Below, one piece after another: positions 2,534-9,673 of a stretch of DNA of 10,851 nt. Position 1 is the first letter of the stretch. Every line of letters begins with the position of its first letter. Source of the stretch: Atribacterota bacterium (GTDB taxonomy: Bacteria > Atribacterota > Phoenicimicrobiia > Phoenicimicrobiales > Phoenicimicrobiaceae); assembly GCA_038203565.1 (NCBI GenBank), contig JBBRDV010000045.1:1-10851 (forward strand), written 5' to 3'. The position numbers were made by a program, and so were the translations under genes. Under the pieces are notes generated by a model, which did not search any database, was not told where the DNA came from, and was given only the letters and a program-made list of their open reading frames with translations.

Positions 2534-2998
2534 CTATTTTCTCGCAGTTAAATCAGTAGTATAAACTCGCTCATCCGCTGTAGCAGAAGTATTAGCATTA
2601 ATTAAATACTGTCCAGTGCCGGCAGAACTATAATACACATATACTTCTCCATCAAGAGCGCCAGCATTTGGCACAGTTGTGGCTGTAAGTATTCCTGTGA
2701 GATAATTCGCGTCAGCGCCCTGTACGAGACCAGTTACAGGATTAACTATACCGGAAGCGAGAACTAAGTTATTTAAATATCCTGCTGCATTAATTACAAG
2801 AACTGTCTTATCAGCCAATTCTGCCTGAATTAAGGTCTGAATGGTTCCTGCATTAGCTTTAATTACGGCATTTTTCGCTTTGTCCTGTTGTCCAGTATAA
2901 AGTCTTAAACCTAAGAGTGCCAATACACCGATGATAGCCACAACGACCATCAATTCGATTAAGGTAAAACCTTTTTTACTTTTTCTTAAACTATACAT
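2534..2998 (-). CDS. Type IV pilin (PilA-like, candidate major pilin)
   Basis: KKG|FTLIELMVVVAIIGVLA class III signal peptide with Glu+5; AAGGAG RBS; own terminator; no Cys. Confidence 0.92.
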   Translation of the reverse strand: MYSLRKSKKGFTLIELMVVVAIIGVLALLGLRLYTGQQDKAKNAVIKANAGTIQTLIQAELADKTVLVINAAGYLNNLVLASGIVNPVTGLVQGADANYLTGILTATTVPNAGALDGEVYVYYSSAGTGQYLINANTSATADERVYTTDLTARK

Positions 2999-3047
2999 TT
3001 TAAATTCTCTCCTTTTTTTAAATATTTTAATTTTCGAAAATTATGTT

Positions 3048-3209
3048 ATTGAAAAATCGGTAGTTTAGCGGTCATAACATGGTTCAAGGTATATGAGATT
3101 GCTTCGTCACTACGTTCCTCGCAATGACAAAAGGAGACGTCCTCGCAATGACAATGTTTTAGACCTAAACTTTGCGTTCTATCCTTTCGAATAGTTTACC
3201 TTTTTCAAT
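3048..3209 (-). promoter_or_regulatory. Cyclic di-GMP-I (GEMM-I) riboswitch aptamer with a repeat inserted in L3
   Basis: Minus strand: P1 ATTGAAAAA/TTTTTCAAT (9 bp); GGTAAA; P2 CTATTC-GAAA-GGATAG; AACGCAAA; P3 GTTTAG-GTC/GAC-cg-CTAAAC; receptor-like TAA...ATG; distal stem AACAT/ATGTT; TACCGA. It ends 49 nt before the pilin ATG. Confidence 0.85.
3095..3153. repeat. GAGATTGCTTCG...CTCGCAATGACA palindromic repeat module (full copy plus half copy)
   Basis: Full unit 3095-3129 and half unit CCTCGCAATGACA 3141-3153; the same arrangement recurs at 4983-5040 and 7583-7640. Confidence 0.85.
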
Positions 3210-3307
3210 TTTTTTTATTTTCCGGTATTCAATCACTTCCTTTTATACACTCCCGTTGGGAGGTTATTCTTTTCTTTAAAAGTAGACTCGAGTTAACAGA
3301 GAAGATA

Positions 3308-3392
3308 GATTCCCGCTTCCCTCTGCCTGTGCGTTTACGCACCTGTCTGCGTACGGATACGCACAGGCAGGCGCAGACAGGCGGGAATGACA
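3308..3392. repeat. ATTCCC-N8-GGGAAT (dRS3-like) repeat carrying two nested 30-nt CCTG...CAGG elements
   Basis: Host arms 3308-3321 and 3382-3392; outer element 3322-3341 plus 3372-3381; inner inverted element 3342-3371. Confidence 0.85.
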
Positions 3393-3411
3393 GAAAGAAA
3401 ACAATCCTCTC

Positions 3412-3474
3412 AATAACCATGCTTTAGATCTAAACTTTGCGTCCCATCCTTTCGGATAGTTTACCTTTCTCAAC
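3412..3474 (-). promoter_or_regulatory. Second c-di-GMP-I aptamer, 5' half only
   Basis: GTTGAGAAAGGTAAACTATCC-GAAA-GGATGGGACGCAAAGTTTAGATCTAAAGCATGGTT: canonical core and a near-duplicate of 3159-3209. No separate ATG...CTAAAC-TACC/P1 3' strand was found before the next aptamer. Confidence 0.75.
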
Positions 3475-3513
3475 TTTTTAAATTTGTTAGCTTTATTCTT
3501 TTCTATTTATATT

Positions 3514-3539
3514 ATTCCCAATTTTGGAAGTTTTTAGAC
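3514..3539 (-). promoter_or_regulatory. Putative SigB/SigF-type promoter (GTCTAA-N14-GGGAAT) for the riboswitch-pilin transcript
   Basis: GTCTAA (3539-3534), 14 nt, GGGAAT (3519-3514). Close to the B. subtilis SigB consensus GTTTAA-N12-14-GGGWAW and duplicated at 4025-4050. Confidence 0.65.
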
Positions 3540-3546
3540 AAGATGT

Positions 3547-3570
3547 AGAAAAATATTTTAATATTTTTCT
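3547..3570. terminator. AT-rich inverted repeat, possible weak terminator or operator
   Basis: AGAAAAATATT-tt-AATATTTTTCT, 11 nt after the stop of pilin 3582-3971 and just upstream of the -35 box. Confidence 0.35.
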
Positions 3571-3581
3571 GATTCACCGAT

Positions 3582-3971
3582 TTATTTTCTAACGGTGAGT
3601 ATATCGGGAAGTAGTCCATCGGCTCCATAGCCTTGGATAGAAAATACTCCTGAAGATAAGGTAATCTGAATTTGACCAGGTGTAATAGCACTTTCCGGAA
3701 ACCATCCTGCTGTATTCATAGCAACTCCATTAAAGGGATTATGTAAACCGGTAGCTCTTGCTATATCTACAGCTCCTTCAAGATTAACATCTGTATCTGC
3801 AAGTTCTGCCTGGATTAAAGTCTGAACTGTTCCGGCATTAGCTTTAACCATGGCATTTTTAGCTTTATCTTGTTGATTTAAATAAAGTCTTAATCCCATC
3901 AAAGCTAATACACCAATGATAGATATTACTACTAATAGTTCAATTAGAGTAAAGCCTTTTTTATTTTTCAT
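3582..3971 (-). CDS. Type IV pilin (PilA-like paralog)
   Basis: KKG|FTLIELLVVISIIGVLA with Glu+5. The first ~55 mature residues are nearly identical to the 2534-2998 pilin (QQDKAKNAxxKANAGTxQTLIQAELAD); the C-terminus is divergent. Confidence 0.92.
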   Translation of the reverse strand: MKNKKGFTLIELLVVISIIGVLALMGLRLYLNQQDKAKNAMVKANAGTVQTLIQAELADTDVNLEGAVDIARATGLHNPFNGVAMNTAGWFPESAITPGQIQITLSSGVFSIQGYGADGLLPDILTVRK

Positions 3972-4024
3972 TAATTGTCCTTTAGGAACTTTTCTAATAA
4001 AATTTAAATACTTATATTTATATT

Positions 4025-4050
4025 ATTCCCAAATTTTAGATTTTTTAGAC
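4025..4050 (-). promoter_or_regulatory. Putative SigB/SigF-type promoter (GTCTAA-N14-GGGAAT) for pilin 3582-3971
   Basis: GTCTAA (4050-4045), 14 nt, GGGAAT (4030-4025). The boxes are identical to 3514-3539 while the spacer has diverged. Confidence 0.65.
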
Positions 4051-4113
4051 AGAATGTATTAAATTAGCAATTTTGCTAATTTGATAATTGACCAATTTAT
4101 CGATTCAAAAGAT

Positions 4114-4323
4114 AGTATATAGTATCGAGTATCGCGTATCGAGTTAATAAAGAGAAAGAAAATAAATTAAATGAAAATAGAAAAAAGATCTAAATGTAAG
4201 CTTTTTGTATAACTGCTTTCCTAAAGTATATACTAACCGATTTACCAATTCACCAATTAAAATAGTCGTTGGTCGTTAGTATTTAGTACTGAAAATGCAG
4301 GTTGCGAGTTGCAGGTTACAAGA
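4114..4323. repeat. Cluster of short heptamer/octamer tandem repeats
   Basis: agtatat-agtatcg-agtatcg-cgtatcg (4114-4141); taccaatt-caccaatt (4243-4258); agtcgtt-ggtcgtt-agtattt (4264-4284); tgcaggt-tgcgagt-tgcaggt (4296-4316). Confidence 0.6.
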
Positions 4324-4332
4324 AGGAAAAGA

Positions 4333-4387
4333 CGGGTTCGATGCCTGCCTGTGCGTTCCCGCACGCAGACAGGAATCGAACCCCTAC
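4333..4387 (-). repeat. GTAG-type REP hairpin with a 30-nt CCTG...CAGG element in its loop
   Basis: Minus strand GTAG-GGGTTCGAT-T[insert 4344-4373]C-ATCGAACCC; near-identical copy at 9619-9673. Confidence 0.85.
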
Positions 4388-4584: not shown

Positions 4585-4830
4585 TTACTTTACCGCTTTT
4601 AGCAAATGAACTTCTTCTCCATGGAATGATTCTGCAGCATATTCTAAAGCAACTTGAATATCTTTTGATGTAAGGTGTGGATAATCTTGGAGAATTTTAT
4701 CAATAGAAATATTTTGGGAAAGTTTTCGCAATATTATTTCTACCGGAATTCTTGTTCCCTTGATAACCGGTTTACCGAACATTATCTTGGGATTTATTTC
4801 TATTCTTTTTGATAAATTTTCTTGAAACAT
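4585..4830 (-). CDS. DUF433 family antitoxin (VapB45-like)
   Basis: RIEINPKIMFGKPVIKGTRIPV...ILQDYPHLTSKDIQVALEYA signature; GGAGG RBS. Confidence 0.92.
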   Translation of the reverse strand: MFQENLSKRIEINPKIMFGKPVIKGTRIPVEIILRKLSQNISIDKILQDYPHLTSKDIQVALEYAAESFHGEEVHLLKAVK

Positions 4831-4982
4831 AGTGTTTGCCTCCTATTGTTTTGCTGTGTGAAAATAGATATATTATTTACTTATTATTATTTTATCAGTT
4901 CTTTAGTTAATTTGCCAATTTATGTGACGATATTACCTTCTAACAGTCAATTTATTTAACTGTTTTATTATTACTAACAGTT

Positions 4983-5040
4983 GAGATTGCTTCGCCATTA
5001 CATTCCTCGCAAAGACAGTGGAAGGTGTTCCGCAATGATA
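4983..5040. repeat. GAGATTGCTTCG...CTCGCAATGACA repeat module (degenerate)
   Basis: Full unit 4983-5017 plus half unit ending at 5040. Confidence 0.75.
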
Positions 5041-5048
5041 GGAAAATA

Positions 5049-5100
5049 GATTCCCGTTTCCACCTGCCTGTGCAAGCACAGCAGACAGGTGGGAATGACA
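5049..5100. repeat. ATTCCC-N8-GGGAAT repeat with a 27-nt CCTG...CAGG variant element
   Basis: GATTCCCGTTTCCA[CCTGCCTGTGCAAGCACAGCAGACAGG, 5063-5089]TGGGAATGACA. Confidence 0.85.
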
Positions 5101-5243
5101 TGGAGGAGGTGGAAATTACAAAAATGATTACGAGAATTACCCCAGTGAAGTATGGCTTTAGGGGGTAAGTCGCATTAAATATTAAATGTAATTTAATAGG
5201 GTAGACATAAAAAGAAAGCGGGAATGACAAGAAAAAAAATAAA

Positions 5244-5302
5244 GTCGGTAGCCTGGTGGTTATAGTAATCAAGAACCTTTTTTTATAGGTTCTTCTGATA
5301 CG
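5244..5302 (-). other. Probable orphan 3' half of a c-di-GMP-I riboswitch
   Basis: 5245-5265 matches the aptamer 3' strand at 3057-3077 at 15 of 21 nt, all differences being transitions. It is preceded on the minus strand by an 8-bp hairpin (5271-5278 / 5287-5294) in the L3 position. Confidence 0.45.
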
Positions 5303-5314
5303 AAACTATTGAAG

Positions 5315-5656
5315 TTAAAAAACAACATCAATTGTTTCCGGTTGTTTCATAATGTATTGCAAAAAACCAGCCTGTTTTTCTTTTTTCCTAGTAAATTCTT
5401 CAGGTGAGAAGGCAAGAACCTCTATCGGTTCCATTACTTCAGCCAATGCATCTCCGATAATCTCCCATCGTTTCCAAAAGGGCATCCTGGAAAACTTGGG
5501 TGAAACTAATATGAGATCTATATCACTATCTGGCCTAAAAGTGCCTCTTGCTCTGGAGCCATATAAATATACTTTTTCAAGTATTATACCTTTAGATTTT
5601 AAGGAATTTATAAACGACAACACAATATTGTTTAACTCACTTGTTGTTTCAGGCAT
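5315..5656 (-). CDS. Minimal nucleotidyltransferase (MNT) domain protein of a HEPN/MNT pair
   Basis: VYLYGSRARG...DSDIDL motif; GGAGGT RBS; overlaps the end of the HEPN gene. Confidence 0.92.
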   Translation of the reverse strand: MPETTSELNNIVLSFINSLKSKGIILEKVYLYGSRARGTFRPDSDIDLILVSPKFSRMPFWKRWEIIGDALAEVMEPIEVLAFSPEEFTRKKEKQAGFLQYIMKQPETIDVVF

Positions 5657-6015
5657 TTTATTACCTCCCTTGCATTTTTGAGATATTTTTTTGCAATCGA
5701 TGAAGGATACTGCTCAATTAACATTTTAAGCTCATCCGGGTAACGAGTAGCCACTGCCGCAGTATTTAACTGTGCTATAAACCTTACTTGAGAATCTGAT
5801 AGCTCCACCTTGCATAACTTCAATAAATAAATCAAGTTATGTGTTTTAGGAGGAGCTTCTCTAAGGTATTCAACTACCATAGCCTTTAATGACTTTTCAA
5901 TTGCAAGATGGCTCATAAAAACACAATATATATAACGTCCCGCTTTAAACATAGCCTGTGCTGTATCGATATCATATTCCGCTTGGGTAATCCATTCAGC
6001 AGTTTCATCTCGCAT
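5632..6015 (-). CDS. HEPN domain protein
   Basis: W...AEYDIDTA, F.SHLAIEKSLKA, PPKTHNL and TRYPD motifs; coupled to the MNT gene. Confidence 0.92.
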   Translation of the reverse strand: MRDETAEWITQAEYDIDTAQAMFKAGRYIYCVFMSHLAIEKSLKAMVVEYLREAPPKTHNLIYLLKLCKVELSDSQVRFIAQLNTAAVATRYPDELKMLIEQYPSSIAKKYLKNAREVIKCLKQQVS

Positions 6016-6043
6016 GTAATCTCATCCCCTATTAATAATCTAT

Positions 6044-6183
6044 TTATTTAACTATTTTATATTTTCTTTTAAAACTTTTTTGTTTTTCGTGTAACTAAAC
6101 TATAATATTTAGTAATTCCTTGATATATATTCGCCAGGCAATTCTTTTAGAAGATCATCAAGCTTTTTCTTTGGTATATTCAT
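6044..6183 (-). pseudogene. Possible DUF2281-like small antitoxin remnant
   Basis: MNIPRKKLDDLLKELPGEY, then after a 2-nt slip in an AT run IKELLNIIV*LHEKQK...; resembles the LPxxxxKELLDFIxFL pattern. Upstream TG-A-TATAAT at 6224-6216. Confidence 0.35.
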
Positions 6184-6300
6184 AATTAAAACCTTCGTTC
6201 AATTATTTTAAGAATATTATATCACCTTAAACTGATAAAAAGAAATATCCTCTTCTCCAATTATCCAATTTTCTAATTAAAGTTAGAGGAAAAAGATTAC

Positions 6301-6366
6301 AGGAACTTCGGCTATATAGGCTTGGTCTTTTTCGCTCCACCATACAATAACTTCGTATTTATACAT
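6301..6366 (-). pseudogene. hicB: HicB antitoxin 5' fragment (frameshifted, truncated)
   Basis: AGGAGG RBS, then MYKYEVIVWWSE and, after a 1-nt shift, DQAYIAEVP. This is the classic HicB N-terminus (...EDxxYxAxVPELPGC), and it stops before ELPGC. Confidence 0.75.
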
Positions 6367-6411
6367 TCTTCTCCTCCTTATGAAGTTTGTATTTTATTAT
6401 TATTTTCTAAT
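6359..6411 (-). pseudogene. HicA toxin 3' stub fused to the end of the RelE-like gene
   Basis: IRK/(shift)IIKYKLHKEEKNV*, with its stop overlapping the hicB start; resembles HicA C-termini of the type ...QVRxIIxKYKL. Confidence 0.45.
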
Positions 6412-6669
6412 GGTGGCAAATTTATAGACATCTTTTCGATTGCCAATAGCAATTATTCTTATTTCTTTATCAACAATTCTATAAATAATTCTCCAATCCC
6501 CTACTCGTAGTTTTCTATAGCCCCTTAAATTTCCACGAAGATAAAATCCATACTTTATTGGATTAACCATTAAACGATTCCTAATGGCAATTTCTATTCT
6601 TACGGCAATATCAGAACTCAATCTTGGGATATCTTCATTTTTTACTTTGGGATGATATTTAATTTTCAC
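6400..6669 (-). CDS. RelE/ParE family toxin
   Basis: LRGNLRGYRKLRVGDWRIIY...IIAIGNRKDVY motif; the GTG start overlaps the antitoxin TGA. Confidence 0.92.
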   Translation of the reverse strand: MKIKYHPKVKNEDIPRLSSDIAVRIEIAIRNRLMVNPIKYGFYLRGNLRGYRKLRVGDWRIIYRIVDKEIRIIAIGNRKDVYKFATIRK

Positions 6670-6899
6670 TTTTGTTTTTTATTCCACACTTCTTCATGGG
6701 TTAAGCCATTTTCCCAATTAAATTTATCTTCCCTTTCAGATGCAATCCTATCGAAGTATCTATCCTCAAAGATCTCTAATCCTTCACAGATTAAATCTCT
6801 ACAAAGACTGGAAATTGAAACTCCCTTTTCTTCCGCCATTTGTTTTATTAAGTCCCTAACGGGGGGTTCTAATAATACAAGTGTTCTTTGATTACTCAC
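6666..6899 (-). CDS. RHH-family antitoxin partner of the RelE-like toxin
   Basis: RTLVLLEPPVRDLIKQMAEEKGVSISSLCRDLI (RHH), acidic C-terminus LTHEEVW. GTG at 6899 is preferred over 6908 because the GAGGTG RBS lies at 6911-6906. Confidence 0.85.
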   Translation of the reverse strand: MSNQRTLVLLEPPVRDLIKQMAEEKGVSISSLCRDLICEGLEIFEDRYFDRIASEREDKFNWENGLTHEEVWNKKQK

Positions 6900-6918
6900 A
6901 TTTATCACCTCTATTCAT

Positions 6919-7028: not shown

Positions 7029-7083
7029 GATTCCCGTTTCCGCCTGCCTGTGCGTTTACGCACGCAGACAGGCAGGAATGACA
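7029..7083. repeat. ATTCCC-N8-(G/A)GGAAT repeat with a 30-nt CCTG...CAGG element
   Basis: GATTCCCGTTTCCG[7043-7072]CAGGAATGACA. Confidence 0.85.
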
Positions 7084-7094
7084 TAAAGAGAAGG

Positions 7095-7544
7095 TTATGT
7101 GGCTTCGTATACGTGTATTTGGAAGTCTTCACTGTTGAATTTTTGTAATTTAACACTATTTACTGCCGGAACTACTACAAAAACTCTATCATTATTATCT
7201 TTTGGGTCTATAGGATAGGCAAAAAATCCTTTACGTTCCGGATTATAGCTATGGGTGGTACCATAGAAATTTTCACCATCCCTAAATATTATTATTACTT
7301 TGCGTTCACTTGGCGTTCTTTTGGGTTGTCCCTCAAAAGTTCTAACTTTTTTATAATTCTTATCGCCGATAAAATCTTTTACAAAAAATACCGCTTTAAG
7401 GGAAGATATCTCTATTTCTAAAATTTCATTACCATCTTCTTCTATGGTATGTAAATGAAATACATCTGCATTGGGCTTAAAATCAGTTGACCAACCTTTT
7501 CGGATTTCACCATCTTTAAATTTTACTACAATTTTGTTTGACAT
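7095..7544 (-). CDS. Conserved hypothetical protein, DUF6982-like, paralog 2
   Basis: Two internal beta-rich repeats (KIVVKFKDGEIRKG / KVIIIFRDGENFYG), LKAVFFVKDF and GFFxYPIDPKDN motifs. The family name is from recall. Confidence 0.75.
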   Translation of the reverse strand: MSNKIVVKFKDGEIRKGWSTDFKPNADVFHLHTIEEDGNEILEIEISSLKAVFFVKDFIGDKNYKKVRTFEGQPKRTPSERKVIIIFRDGENFYGTTHSYNPERKGFFAYPIDPKDNNDRVFVVVPAVNSVKLQKFNSEDFQIHVYEAT

Positions 7545-7582
7545 TATTTTTTAGTTTCCCTTCTTTGTATAATTTATTATAC

Positions 7583-7640
7583 GAGATTGCTTCGTCGCTT
7601 CGTTCCTCGCAATGACAGAGGAAAATGCCTCGCAATGACA
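7583..7640. repeat. GAGATTGCTTCG...CTCGCAATGACA repeat module
   Basis: Full unit 7583-7617 plus half unit 7628-7640, lying between the two paralogous genes. Confidence 0.85.
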
Positions 7641-7650
7641 GATTTTTACT

Positions 7651-8073
7651 TTATATTTCAATTTTCTCCAGGCGGACGTTCTCTACTGCTGAATGAACTA
7701 CAAAAATTCTTTCACTGTTATCTTTTGGGTCGATAGGATACATAAAGAATCCTACTTTGTGTCTGCCATAGTTGTGACTGGTACCGTATAAATGTTCTCC
7801 ATCTTTAAAATTAACAATTAACTTACGTTGGCTGGGAGTTATATTAAAGTCAACGTTAAAGGTTCTAACTTTTTTATAATTTTTATCTCCTATAAAATCT
7901 TTTACAAAAAATACTGCTTTTAAAGGCTCAAAATTAATTTCCATTCTCTCTTCTTCGCTATATTCAATAAGCGGAAAAAATATAAATGATCCTCTATCGA
8001 GTCGAAAATCTTCAACCCAGCCTTTTATAATTTCTCCATTTTGGTATTTTACTACAGCCTTTTTTTTGTGCAT
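7651..8073 (-). CDS. Conserved hypothetical protein, DUF6982-like, paralog 1
   Basis: Shares an identical 22-aa block LKAVFFVKDFIGDKNYKKVRTF with 7095-7544; GGAGGAG RBS. Confidence 0.75.
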   Translation of the reverse strand: MHKKKAVVKYQNGEIIKGWVEDFRLDRGSFIFFPLIEYSEEERMEINFEPLKAVFFVKDFIGDKNYKKVRTFNVDFNITPSQRKLIVNFKDGEHLYGTSHNYGRHKVGFFMYPIDPKDNSERIFVVHSAVENVRLEKIEI

Positions 8074-8159: not shown

Positions 8160-8870
8160 TTAAATATCTTTTAATTCTTTTTTTAAAGTTTTTAAGGCTT
8201 CGTTTTTTATTCGAGAAACCTGCCTTTGGGAAATCGTTAATTTTTTGGCTGTTTTAGCCTGAGTCAGATCTTTGATGAAAATATAGTTAATAACCTTACG
8301 CTGTAAATTTTTTAATTTATTTAAAGCAAGCTCTAAGGCAATTAAATCTTCTACAGGCAGCCGAAAGCTTTTATAATGGTCATTCTTTATTTTTTCTAAT
8401 GAAGGCTGCTCATTGTAGTCATAAGTACGATTTCCCTGGTCAATAGAAACCACATGGACAACATCTCTTGCCTTTAACACCTCTTTAACTCCTTCTACTG
8501 TAAGGTTAAACTCTTCTGCAATTTTTTTTAGAGATGGTGTCTGTTTAGTTTCTTCTTTATATTTTACTATATATTCGTCTATTCTCCTATTCAGTTCAGT
8601 TATCCAGTGAGGAATTCTTATGGGTTGATGTTTATCTCTGATATAATGCCTGATTTCTCCGGAGATAAACCAGGAGGCATAGGTTTCAAATTTCACTTTC
8701 CGTTGTTGATTATAAAGATTTATAGCATTAATTAGGCCAATATACCCTAACTGCTCTAAATCTTCTAATGGCTCACCAGAATTTTTAAATTGGTAGGCAA
8801 TATTTTTTACTAAAGGTTTGAATTTTAGAATCTGTTCGTCAGTGATTTCTTTATTTATATCTAATGCCAT
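8160..8870 (-). CDS. RNA polymerase sigma factor, SigB/SigF/SigG family
   Basis: Region 2 EDLEQLGYIGLINAI...KFETYA...GEIRHYIRD, region 3, and region 4 HTH TQAKTAKKLTISQRQVSRI; GGAGG RBS. Confidence 0.92.
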   Translation of the reverse strand: MALDINKEITDEQILKFKPLVKNIAYQFKNSGEPLEDLEQLGYIGLINAINLYNQQRKVKFETYASWFISGEIRHYIRDKHQPIRIPHWITELNRRIDEYIVKYKEETKQTPSLKKIAEEFNLTVEGVKEVLKARDVVHVVSIDQGNRTYDYNEQPSLEKIKNDHYKSFRLPVEDLIALELALNKLKNLQRKVINYIFIKDLTQAKTAKKLTISQRQVSRIKNEALKTLKKELKDI

Positions 8871-8890
8871 AATAATGCTCCCTCCACACC

Positions 8891-9604
8891 TTAATCGCTT
8901 TCGATGCTTTCTTTTAATTCTTTAAGGGCAGAATCTTTTATTCGGGAAATTTGCCTTTGAGAAATGCCCAATTTACGAGCTATGTTTGTTTGAGTTAAAT
9001 CTTTTTCGAAAATATAATAGATTACTTTTCGCTGTAAATTTTTTAATCTGCTCAAAGCAGTTTTTAAAGCAATAATATCTTCTATCGGCAGTTTAAATGT
9101 TTCATAATTTTTACTCTTTATTTTTTCTATTTTAGGATAGCTGTCAGAATTATATTTTCTCTGTTCCTGGTCAAGGGAAACTATTTGAACTGCCTCCCGA
9201 GCTTTCAGAATTTCTTTTATCCCTTCTTCGGTTAGGTTAAATTTTTCAGATATTTCAGAAAGTGATGGAAATCTATTATTTTCTTTTTTATAGGAAATAA
9301 TAAATTCGTCTATTTTTTTATTTAATTTTAACATCCAGCCGGGAATTTTTATTACCTGATGCTTGTCTCTGATATAATGACGGATTTCACCGGAGATAAG
9401 CCAGGTAGCATAGGTTTTGAATTTTACTCCCCTTTCGTGATTGTAAAGATTAAAGGCATTGATTAATCCTACATAGCCCACTTGTTCTAAGTCTTCTAAG
9501 GGTTCTCCAGAATTTTTGAATTTATAAGAAATATTCTTTACCAAGGGTTGGTATTCTTTTATTTGAGCATCGGTTATTTTTTGTGTGTTAGCTGTTACGG
9601 TCAT
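8891..9604 (-). CDS. RNA polymerase sigma factor, SigB/SigF/SigG family (tandem paralog)
   Basis: EDLEQVGYVGLINAF...KFKTYA...GEIRHYIRD and TQTNIARKLGISQRQISRI; colinear with 8160-8870. Confidence 0.92.
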   Translation of the reverse strand: MTVTANTQKITDAQIKEYQPLVKNISYKFKNSGEPLEDLEQVGYVGLINAFNLYNHERGVKFKTYATWLISGEIRHYIRDKHQVIKIPGWMLKLNKKIDEFIISYKKENNRFPSLSEISEKFNLTEEGIKEILKAREAVQIVSLDQEQRKYNSDSYPKIEKIKSKNYETFKLPIEDIIALKTALSRLKNLQRKVIYYIFEKDLTQTNIARKLGISQRQISRIKDSALKELKESIESD

Positions 9605-9618
9605 AATAGTGATCCTTG

Positions 9619-9673
9619 CGGGTTCGATGCCTGCCTGTGCGTTCCCGCACGCAGACAGGAATCGAGCCCCTAC
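9619..9673 (-). repeat. GTAG-type REP hairpin with the 30-nt CCTG...CAGG element
   Basis: Insert at 9630-9659; differs from 4333-4387 at a single position. Confidence 0.85.

Follow-up and report, generated by a model that had tools for sequence, protein, structure and literature searches.

A self-nesting bulged hairpin in an Atribacterota genome, with a GIY-YIG nuclease cassette as its candidate partner

It is still an open question how repeats of 20-30 bases move when they have no known transposase. The closest described systems to the element that we report here are the Nostoc small dispersed repeats (SDRs) and the Ssn/NTS system. Elhai et al. are said to have described, in 2008, SDR1-8 of Nostocaceae, which are 21-27 nt long and nest within themselves. 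In the available text of three papers, SDRs are reported from Nostocaceae only (PMC5861425, PMC4390886, PMC2884548). The Ssn nucleases go with NTS/SRM (dRS3) hairpins; according to the accessible part of that paper, the cleavage site of SsnA lies a few bases upstream of the repeat, mobility is not shown, and an origin from IS-like elements is suggested as a possibility (Chenal et al. 2025, PMC11893778). CGTC repeats are reported without a dedicated enzyme in the available text of PMC3733652.

We analyzed a contig of 10,851 nt from an Atribacterota bacterium ("the window"; JBBRDV010000045.1 in GCA_038203565.1). In an earlier note, made from these letters, positions 3308-3392 had been described as a 30-nt hairpin inserted, inverted, into itself inside a host repeat. 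We find that the nest is real and recurrent.

The nest and its setting

Positions 3342-3371 are the reverse complement of a 30-nt unit and lie inverted inside an outer unit, as claimed. Joining 3322-3341 to 3372-3381 gives an outer unit of 30 nt, which matches the single copy at 7043-7072 at 29 of 30 positions. (The inner unit matches that copy at 27 of 30.) Removing both units restores the host repeat: 3308-3321 and 3382-3392 pair, and the dRS3-like hairpin that results has a spacer of 8 nt. The features are listed in Table 1. The note had also called the junctions precise. They are exact in length, but the outer-left junction has two adjacent departures. The host base there is C, while the eight empty host copies in the genome have G (seven) or A (one), and the outer unit begins with T, a start that is common across phyla.

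Table 1. Features of the nest, the single units and the riboswitches in the window
Feature	Position	Strand	Remark
Downstream c-di-GMP-I aptamer, in the leader of the pilin gene (2534-2998)	3056..3210	-	
Host hairpin, one half (classed as a dRS3/NTS-type CGTC repeat)	3308..3321	-	consensus orientation
Outer unit: left arm, inner stem and loop	3322..3341	+	T-start variant
Inner unit, inverted	3342..3371	-	inserted directly 5' of the CG bulge (2 nt) of the outer unit
Outer unit: CG bulge and right arm	3372..3381	+	
Host hairpin, other half	3382..3392	-	
Upstream c-di-GMP-I aptamer	3389..3475	-	41.8 bits, broken pairs
Single 30-nt unit	4344..4373	+	center of a GTAG-type REP
Single 27-nt unit	5063..5089	+	in an NTS-type host
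Single 30-nt unit	7043..7072	+	in an NTS-type host; corresponds to the outer unit without a nest
Single 30-nt unit	9630..9659	+	in a GTAG-type REP; identical to 4344-4373

The arm pattern has five matches in the window and none in each of 200 shuffles. An empty host paralogue with the same flanks lies at C17:6459-6507 (91.8% over 49 nt). The inner variant has four exact copies in the genome, every one of them in a nested cluster, and the inner unit folds as DNA into a hairpin (z -3.9). Three relatives (L011, L288, and L300) have the same three layers in the same type of host, with other variants.

Sequencing runs cover the nest in part. The contigs of run X1, which is possibly the source sample and consists of contigs only, span all four junctions, but as two overlapping pieces (unitigs 3000-3367 and 3352-4361, each with 0 differences from the window), and a single spanning read was not seen. 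Only the junction 3321/3322 is bridged by at least 31 letters on both sides, and the unitig break falls inside the multi-copy inner unit. The X1 contigs contain no joint that skips a unit (contigs drop rare variants). Runs X2, X4, and X5 contain short parts only, and no RNA run is listed among those with this sequence.

The host layer is, by its sequence, a dRS3/NTS-type repeat. It has the core ATTCCC-N8-GGGAAT within the oriented 28-nt NTS consensus, with a spacer of 8 nt once the units are taken out. Compared by hand with the consensus as given in the available text of PMC11893778, the restored host matches at 24 of 28 positions and the empty C17 paralogue at 26 of 28. We did not find an ssn gene flanked by an NTS repeat in this genome (an assembly of 218 contigs), whose two GIY-YIG matches are the cassette gene described below and a frame of 529 amino acids. 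Ssn-like genes bordered by an NTS-type repeat are seen in relatives (L552-L557 and L559). We also saw, in relatives L552-L559, L563, and L566-L568, Ssn-like genes between CGTC hairpins of two kinds.

The nest lies between two tandem c-di-GMP-I aptamers of a pilin leader. The 3' P2 strand of the upstream aptamer is missing at the start of the host repeat; the strand is kept in all seven of the aligned loci from relatives. The downstream aptamer has a 72-nt insert in its P2 loop with a CGTC-type repeat; some relatives have a CGTC-type repeat there too. None of the seven aligned loci has the unit at this place: they have other small hairpins or none, and one has a plain host-type hairpin. At the gathering score, Rfam found only the two riboswitches in the whole window, with no match for the unit. 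Elsewhere in the window there are tandem paralogue pairs of DUF6982 proteins (7095-8073), sigma-factor-like genes (8160-9604), and pilin-like genes (2534-3971). Small genes of toxin-antitoxin type (DUF433, HEPN with a nucleotidyltransferase, and a RelE-like pair that was identified by eye) lie amid palindromic repeats at 4585-6908.

The unit in this genome and in other phyla

The unit is a bulged hairpin of 19-33 nt with the ends CCTGCCTG...CAGACAGG. Its outer arms are 8 nt long and fixed, the bulge has 2-3 nt, and the inner stem varies. The outer arms were set by our search patterns, so we ran the fold test on the interiors: 19 of 45 distinct interiors have an inner stem of at least 3 bp followed by a bulge of 2-3 nt, compared to 2.0 in shuffles (with a maximum of 7 over 500 shuffles). 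When a unit is inserted in another unit, it sits directly 5' of this bulge.

Our census of the genome found 33 clusters, of which 32 could be parsed, into 45 units. There are 13 inverted nests (at the same site in the unit as in the window's nest) and 7 in the same orientation, and in one cluster the nesting reaches three units. Cluster C2:41208 has a local 10-nt inversion-like form, and the 60-nt doubles at C2:74186 and C86:814 are identical. Clusters C38 (21 nt) and C40 (18 nt, in a gene) may be chance matches or distant variants. We considered whether outer units with a T start are found exclusively in doubles, and rejected this. This genome nearly fits (there is one single, C35), but 119 singles across phyla refute it.

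The earlier note had argued that the 30-mer is independently mobile and has defined ends, rather than being a fixed part of its host repeat. This is supported. The unit is not bound to one host, as several unrelated repeats and also unique genes are occupied. The hosts in this genome are NTS-like hairpins (5 filled, by pattern, and 8 empty), GTAG-type REPs, heptamer arrays, IS transposase genes, and group II intron remnants. In relatives, both orientations are found at one host site (L286 versus L308). Precise empty alleles were found as well, including in unique DNA. Within the genome, there are precise empty paralogues for an IS gene (C54 versus C160, 87.5%) and for a REP doublet (97.5%). 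Among 31 unit sites from relatives, 8 align to this genome on both sides; three of these rows (two sites) are precise empty orthologues and five are poor at the junction. An SNF2-like gene contains the same double of 60 nt, in frame, and has a precise empty orthologue (92.7%). A second gene with a unit has a precise empty allele too (94.7%).

The claim needs narrowing on two points. First, the unit is not one fixed 30-mer: its length ranges over 19-33 nt, its loop varies, and its first base is C or T. Second, some variants move together with the repeat that contains them, which means that only part of the copies are insertions in their own right. For instance, one loop variant is found in the GTAG host both here and in three relatives. 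A 19-nt variant has four copies: in a group II intron remnant (G000:C48:8753), at the matching site of a paralogous sequence (C97:5220), and twice at a remnant of an intron reverse transcriptase (C104:257 and C104:380). It is also found at that site of one paralogous element in a relative. (The intron on C48 sits within an inverted repeat of the type that flanks a Y1 transposase gene on C66.)

By estimates from a scan of our collection, about 3,900 stretches have C-start units, about 900 have T-start units, and about 500 have a nested junction, in many phyla. In a phage collection, 115 loci match a looser pattern for the unit. Of 117 matches across phyla, 46 are complete doubles, and one chromosome-level record (L225) contains a complete double. 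The inner unit differs from the outer unit in 44 of the 46, which implies that inner units arrive from elsewhere.

More than 200 distinct unit sites across phyla obey a common junction rule. The junction is purine^pyrimidine for 92 of 121 C-start units and 78 of 119 T-start units, and the base before it is G for 103 and 44 of them, respectively. Target-site duplications of 3 nt (1/121) or 4 nt (2/121) are at chance level; for C-start units, a 1-nt overlap of G and zero duplication look the same. In 103 of 121 cases the unit's length is a multiple of three, which we interpret as selection against frameshifts, and 109 of 121 have no stop codon in any frame. The units add loops of 9-20 residues to proteins in many uncultured phyla, which affects annotation and alignment. 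At 218 target sites, the predicted folding energy is -6.1 kcal/mol versus -4.1 for the flanks, and the junction lies in the loop of a stem of at least 6 bp at 26 of 218 sites versus 3% of controls (both without control for G+C). Most of the targets (152 of 218) are outside every class of repeat that we scanned for. The counts over 121 sites, and possibly also the set of 218 targets, include L059 and L072 from genome G064, which carries the mark "unpublished"; no claim depends on them.

Two further analyses gave null results. In two large contigs, the orientation of units has no replichore bias (49/79, P 0.33; 31/50, P 0.53), where overlapping or closely spaced matches were thinned by hand and the position of the replication origin is not known. 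Clustering the genes that neighbor the units gave no shared enzyme, either at 95 loci (after removing 21 of 116 as chance matches) or at 117 loci.

A GIY-YIG cassette with related arms

We found a family of cassettes of 279-285 nt, mostly 282 nt, in which a GIY-YIG gene lies between arms CCTGCCTG and CAGGCAGG. This genome has one (G000:C55; L149, 1385-1754), whose catalytic domain matches with E 8e-19. It is a 370-nt insert in a remnant of hsdS that splits one codon, with no duplication. The gene, which starts with a codon of its own, is fused to the tail of HsdS; the inner arms of the cassette are decayed, it is out of frame with the host, and it has a long branch in the tree. A genome from another genus has a nearly identical cassette (94%). 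The site is shared with two relatives, so these cassettes represent one event.

In 39 unit-bearing genomes from other phyla, the four best relatives of the nuclease are in-frame cassettes with the same arms, inserted in hsdS, hsdM, hsdR, and msrB (names read by eye); one has a unit in its right end. A profile built from 10 cassette proteins identified 85 further loci. Automated parsing recognized 66 of these as arm-bounded, at 55 distinct host sites, and 39 are 282 nt long. (About five rows were mis-cut; several unparsed loci have both arms by eye, and others have only a neighboring hairpin.) None of the 55 sites has a duplication of 2-4 nt, and 45 have a purine^pyrimidine junction. Gene-less hairpins of 30-36 nt with cassette-type ends also occur, and they nest at the unit's own site.

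The cassette nucleases that we examined form one clade with invariant residues of catalytic type. The protein has about 90 residues and a confidently predicted fold (pLDDT 93.8), and the nearest folds are those of UPF0213 and the branched-DNA nuclease Slx1. NCBIfam has no family that matches it above the cut-off. In a tree of 55 rows, the cassette nuclease lies outside the NTS-flanked Ssn-like clade (the support of the latter is 100/96), and a C-terminal motif of that clade splits 14/17 versus 0/25.

Only one type of cassette, L683, has the unit's exact arms. Among the 81 proteins examined, 49 are of this type, all of them at one and the same site in hsdS, with host residues repeated at the start of the cassette. 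As all 49 proteins share one host site, we rejected L683 as an independent mobile subtype; from its sequence, it is probably a recombinant or chimera. Compared with the arms of the unit, those of the standard cassette are different inside the outer 8 nt and, on the right, at one base. Also, the base before the junction is A at 45 of 55 cassette sites, versus the G of C-start units (103/121). Separately, we saw fusions of restriction genes with nucleases from the clade of the cassette (L655, L661, L663, L684, and L687; L606, L658, and L664). In place of the two arms, these have a complete unit on the upstream side or a 20-nt hairpin on the downstream side.

The co-occurrence of units and cassettes is one-way. 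Among 301 genomes from another phylum, the cassette profile matches 4 at E 1e-22, and all 4 have units (24, 17, 7, and 6), with one of the cassettes being without its left arm. Units are found in 82 of the 301 genomes (P 0.005 for co-occurrence, uncorrected for kinship). Against the 22 genomes with at least six units by hand count, P is 2e-5, for a threshold chosen afterwards and for kin that are not independent. In the phylum of this genome (86 genomes), the two unit-richest genomes (41 and 29) are among the 3 with the cassette; this genome was the starting point, so only the second rich genome counts as a test. The third has one unit and a cassette whose right arm is decayed. G009 has the cassette yet only one unit.

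In the other direction, the search for the cassette gave nothing in 18 of the 22 genomes with at least six units, and the four richest of all (96, 94, 81, and 69 units) are among these 18. G079, a chromosome-level genome with 108 unit matches, has no match to the profile at E 0.001. No nuclease gene lies within 1.5 kb of any of 117 unit loci. We also considered small GIY-YIG genes in five unit-rich genomes as movers, but none is bounded by arms. At L691, from a genome with 94 units that are mostly of a 20-nt variant (G126), a small GIY-YIG gene lies between a disabled and an intact tRNA, and a related 19-nt hairpin interrupts the disabled copy.

How the unit might move, and what it resembles

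The 30-mer is a gene-less hairpin, inserted in a copy of itself within an NTS-type repeat. In our preferred explanation, to which we give about an even chance, it is a non-autonomous partner of the GIY-YIG cassette, and the nuclease drives a scarless insertion of a single strand. The nuclease would recognize the arms as a hairpin in single-stranded DNA and would nick at the arm bases. The nick in the target would fall at a purine^pyrimidine step where transiently single-stranded DNA forms a loop or bulge, and host ligase or repair synthesis would join the hairpin into the target. Further copies would be carried along as host repeats spread. The unit is itself a bulged hairpin with a purine^pyrimidine step beside its bulge, so it would be its own preferred target, which would lead to nests. 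No GIY-YIG enzyme is known to join strands, and this counts against the nuclease model.

A wider reading, which we consider somewhat less likely than not, is a class of transposon whose sole gene is a nuclease of about 90 residues, similar to Slx1 and UPF0213, inside the arms of a single hairpin. It would insert without scars into single-stranded loops, usually in frame in host proteins, and loss of the gene would leave a self-targeting hairpin of 19-33 nt that crosses phyla.

Instead, the unit and the cassette could both be cargo. Another enzyme (a different clade of small nucleases, or host repair and ligation) would then insert arm-bounded DNA, and the GIY-YIG gene would be a passenger or one of several movers. 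The unit-rich genomes without a cassette suggest this, as does G126 with its tRNA-docked GIY-YIG gene and related 19-nt hairpin, and the common arms and junction rule fit one common mover equally well. We still find this rather doubtful: the cassettes examined have the same clade of nuclease with invariant catalytic-type residues, no other cargo was met between the arms among the cassettes found by way of the nuclease, and mobile elements commonly lose their autonomous copy once a burst is over. Homology and hitch-hiking certainly contribute to the spread. They are unlikely to be its main route (gene conversion, RNA-templated patching, or hitch-hiking in host repeats and introns, after rare illegitimate first insertions), because there are precise insertions in unique genes that share no homology with the unit, one host site has both orientations, and the more than 200 distinct sites across phyla follow one junction rule. 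What speaks for them are the host-specific variants (the loop variant of the GTAG host, here and in three relatives, and the 19-nt variant at paralogous sites), the identical 60-nt doubles at C2:74186 and C86:814, the nesting of all four copies of the inner variant, and the recombinant look of the L683 type.

A Y1 HUH transposase (RAYT or IS200 type) could move a single-stranded hairpin, as has been suggested for REPINs, but for the unit this is improbable. Hairpin ends without target duplication are compatible with HUH chemistry, and the genome has 6 Y1_Tnp matches, but within 350 nt to the left and right of these loci there is no unit (three have other inverted repeats at their flanks), the RAYT motif is absent near the 117 unit loci, and the two large contigs gave no bias of orientation by replichore. 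The nest is very improbable as an assembly artefact or a local template-switch duplication. The break of the X1 unitigs within the inner unit, with no single spanning read seen, and the inversion-like form at C2:41208 would fit with this. But the inner and outer loops differ in this nest, as they do in 44 of the 46 doubles from elsewhere; a chromosome-level record has a complete double; the three layers recur in three relatives with other variants; and one empty paralogue matches both flanks.

The reading in which the nuclease moves the unit can be tested with a single small protein and a set of oligonucleotides, as the ends are defined, the candidate enzyme has about 90 residues, and both a junction rule and empty alleles are available. 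If the nuclease does move the unit, this would be a transposition chemistry that we have not found described for GIY-YIG enzymes, and possibly a very small tool for scarless insertion. If the transposon-class reading is true, the hairpin is among the smallest mobile DNAs, and it offers a candidate type of enzyme for SDR-like micro-elements.

We searched the full-text literature that was within reach (most subscription papers and bioRxiv supplements are outside it) and found no description of the unit or the cassette. MITEs of DDE insertion sequences are a poor match, as target-site duplications do not exceed chance. RPE-1 elements are longer than the unit and are confined to one genus. The Rickettsia palindromic elements, which are mentioned in PMC3733652, resemble the unit in that both are read in frame inside proteins. 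REP/REPIN-RAYT systems, as far as the available texts describe them (PMC3116915, PMC3733652), likewise combine a non-autonomous hairpin with a rare enzyme gene, and two of the unit's hosts belong to the GTAG and CGTC superfamilies. In contrast to a REPIN, the unit is a single hairpin of 19-33 nt that ends in its arms, with no doublet and no GTAG/CGTC tag. Also, 0 of 6 Y1_Tnp loci are flanked by units and 0 of 117 unit loci have a RAYT motif.

From the accessible part of the Ssn paper (PMC11893778), the similarity lies in the NTS type of the host repeat and in the pairing of a small single-domain GIY-YIG enzyme with a hairpin. But the cassette gene lies between the arms of one hairpin, mostly in frame in host genes, while ssn lies between two whole hairpins, and the cassette enzyme is apart from the NTS-flanked clade (our proxy for cd10448) in the 55-row tree. 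The unit is like the SDRs in being precisely inserted in other repeats and in itself, where the SDR side is drawn in part from citing papers; the likeness is one of behavior. Unlike the SDRs as reported there, the unit is found in many phyla and on phage contigs, with a candidate enzyme whose gene has matching ends. Compared with these systems, the unit is a further variant among very small mobile hairpins, with a candidate enzyme that can be tested.
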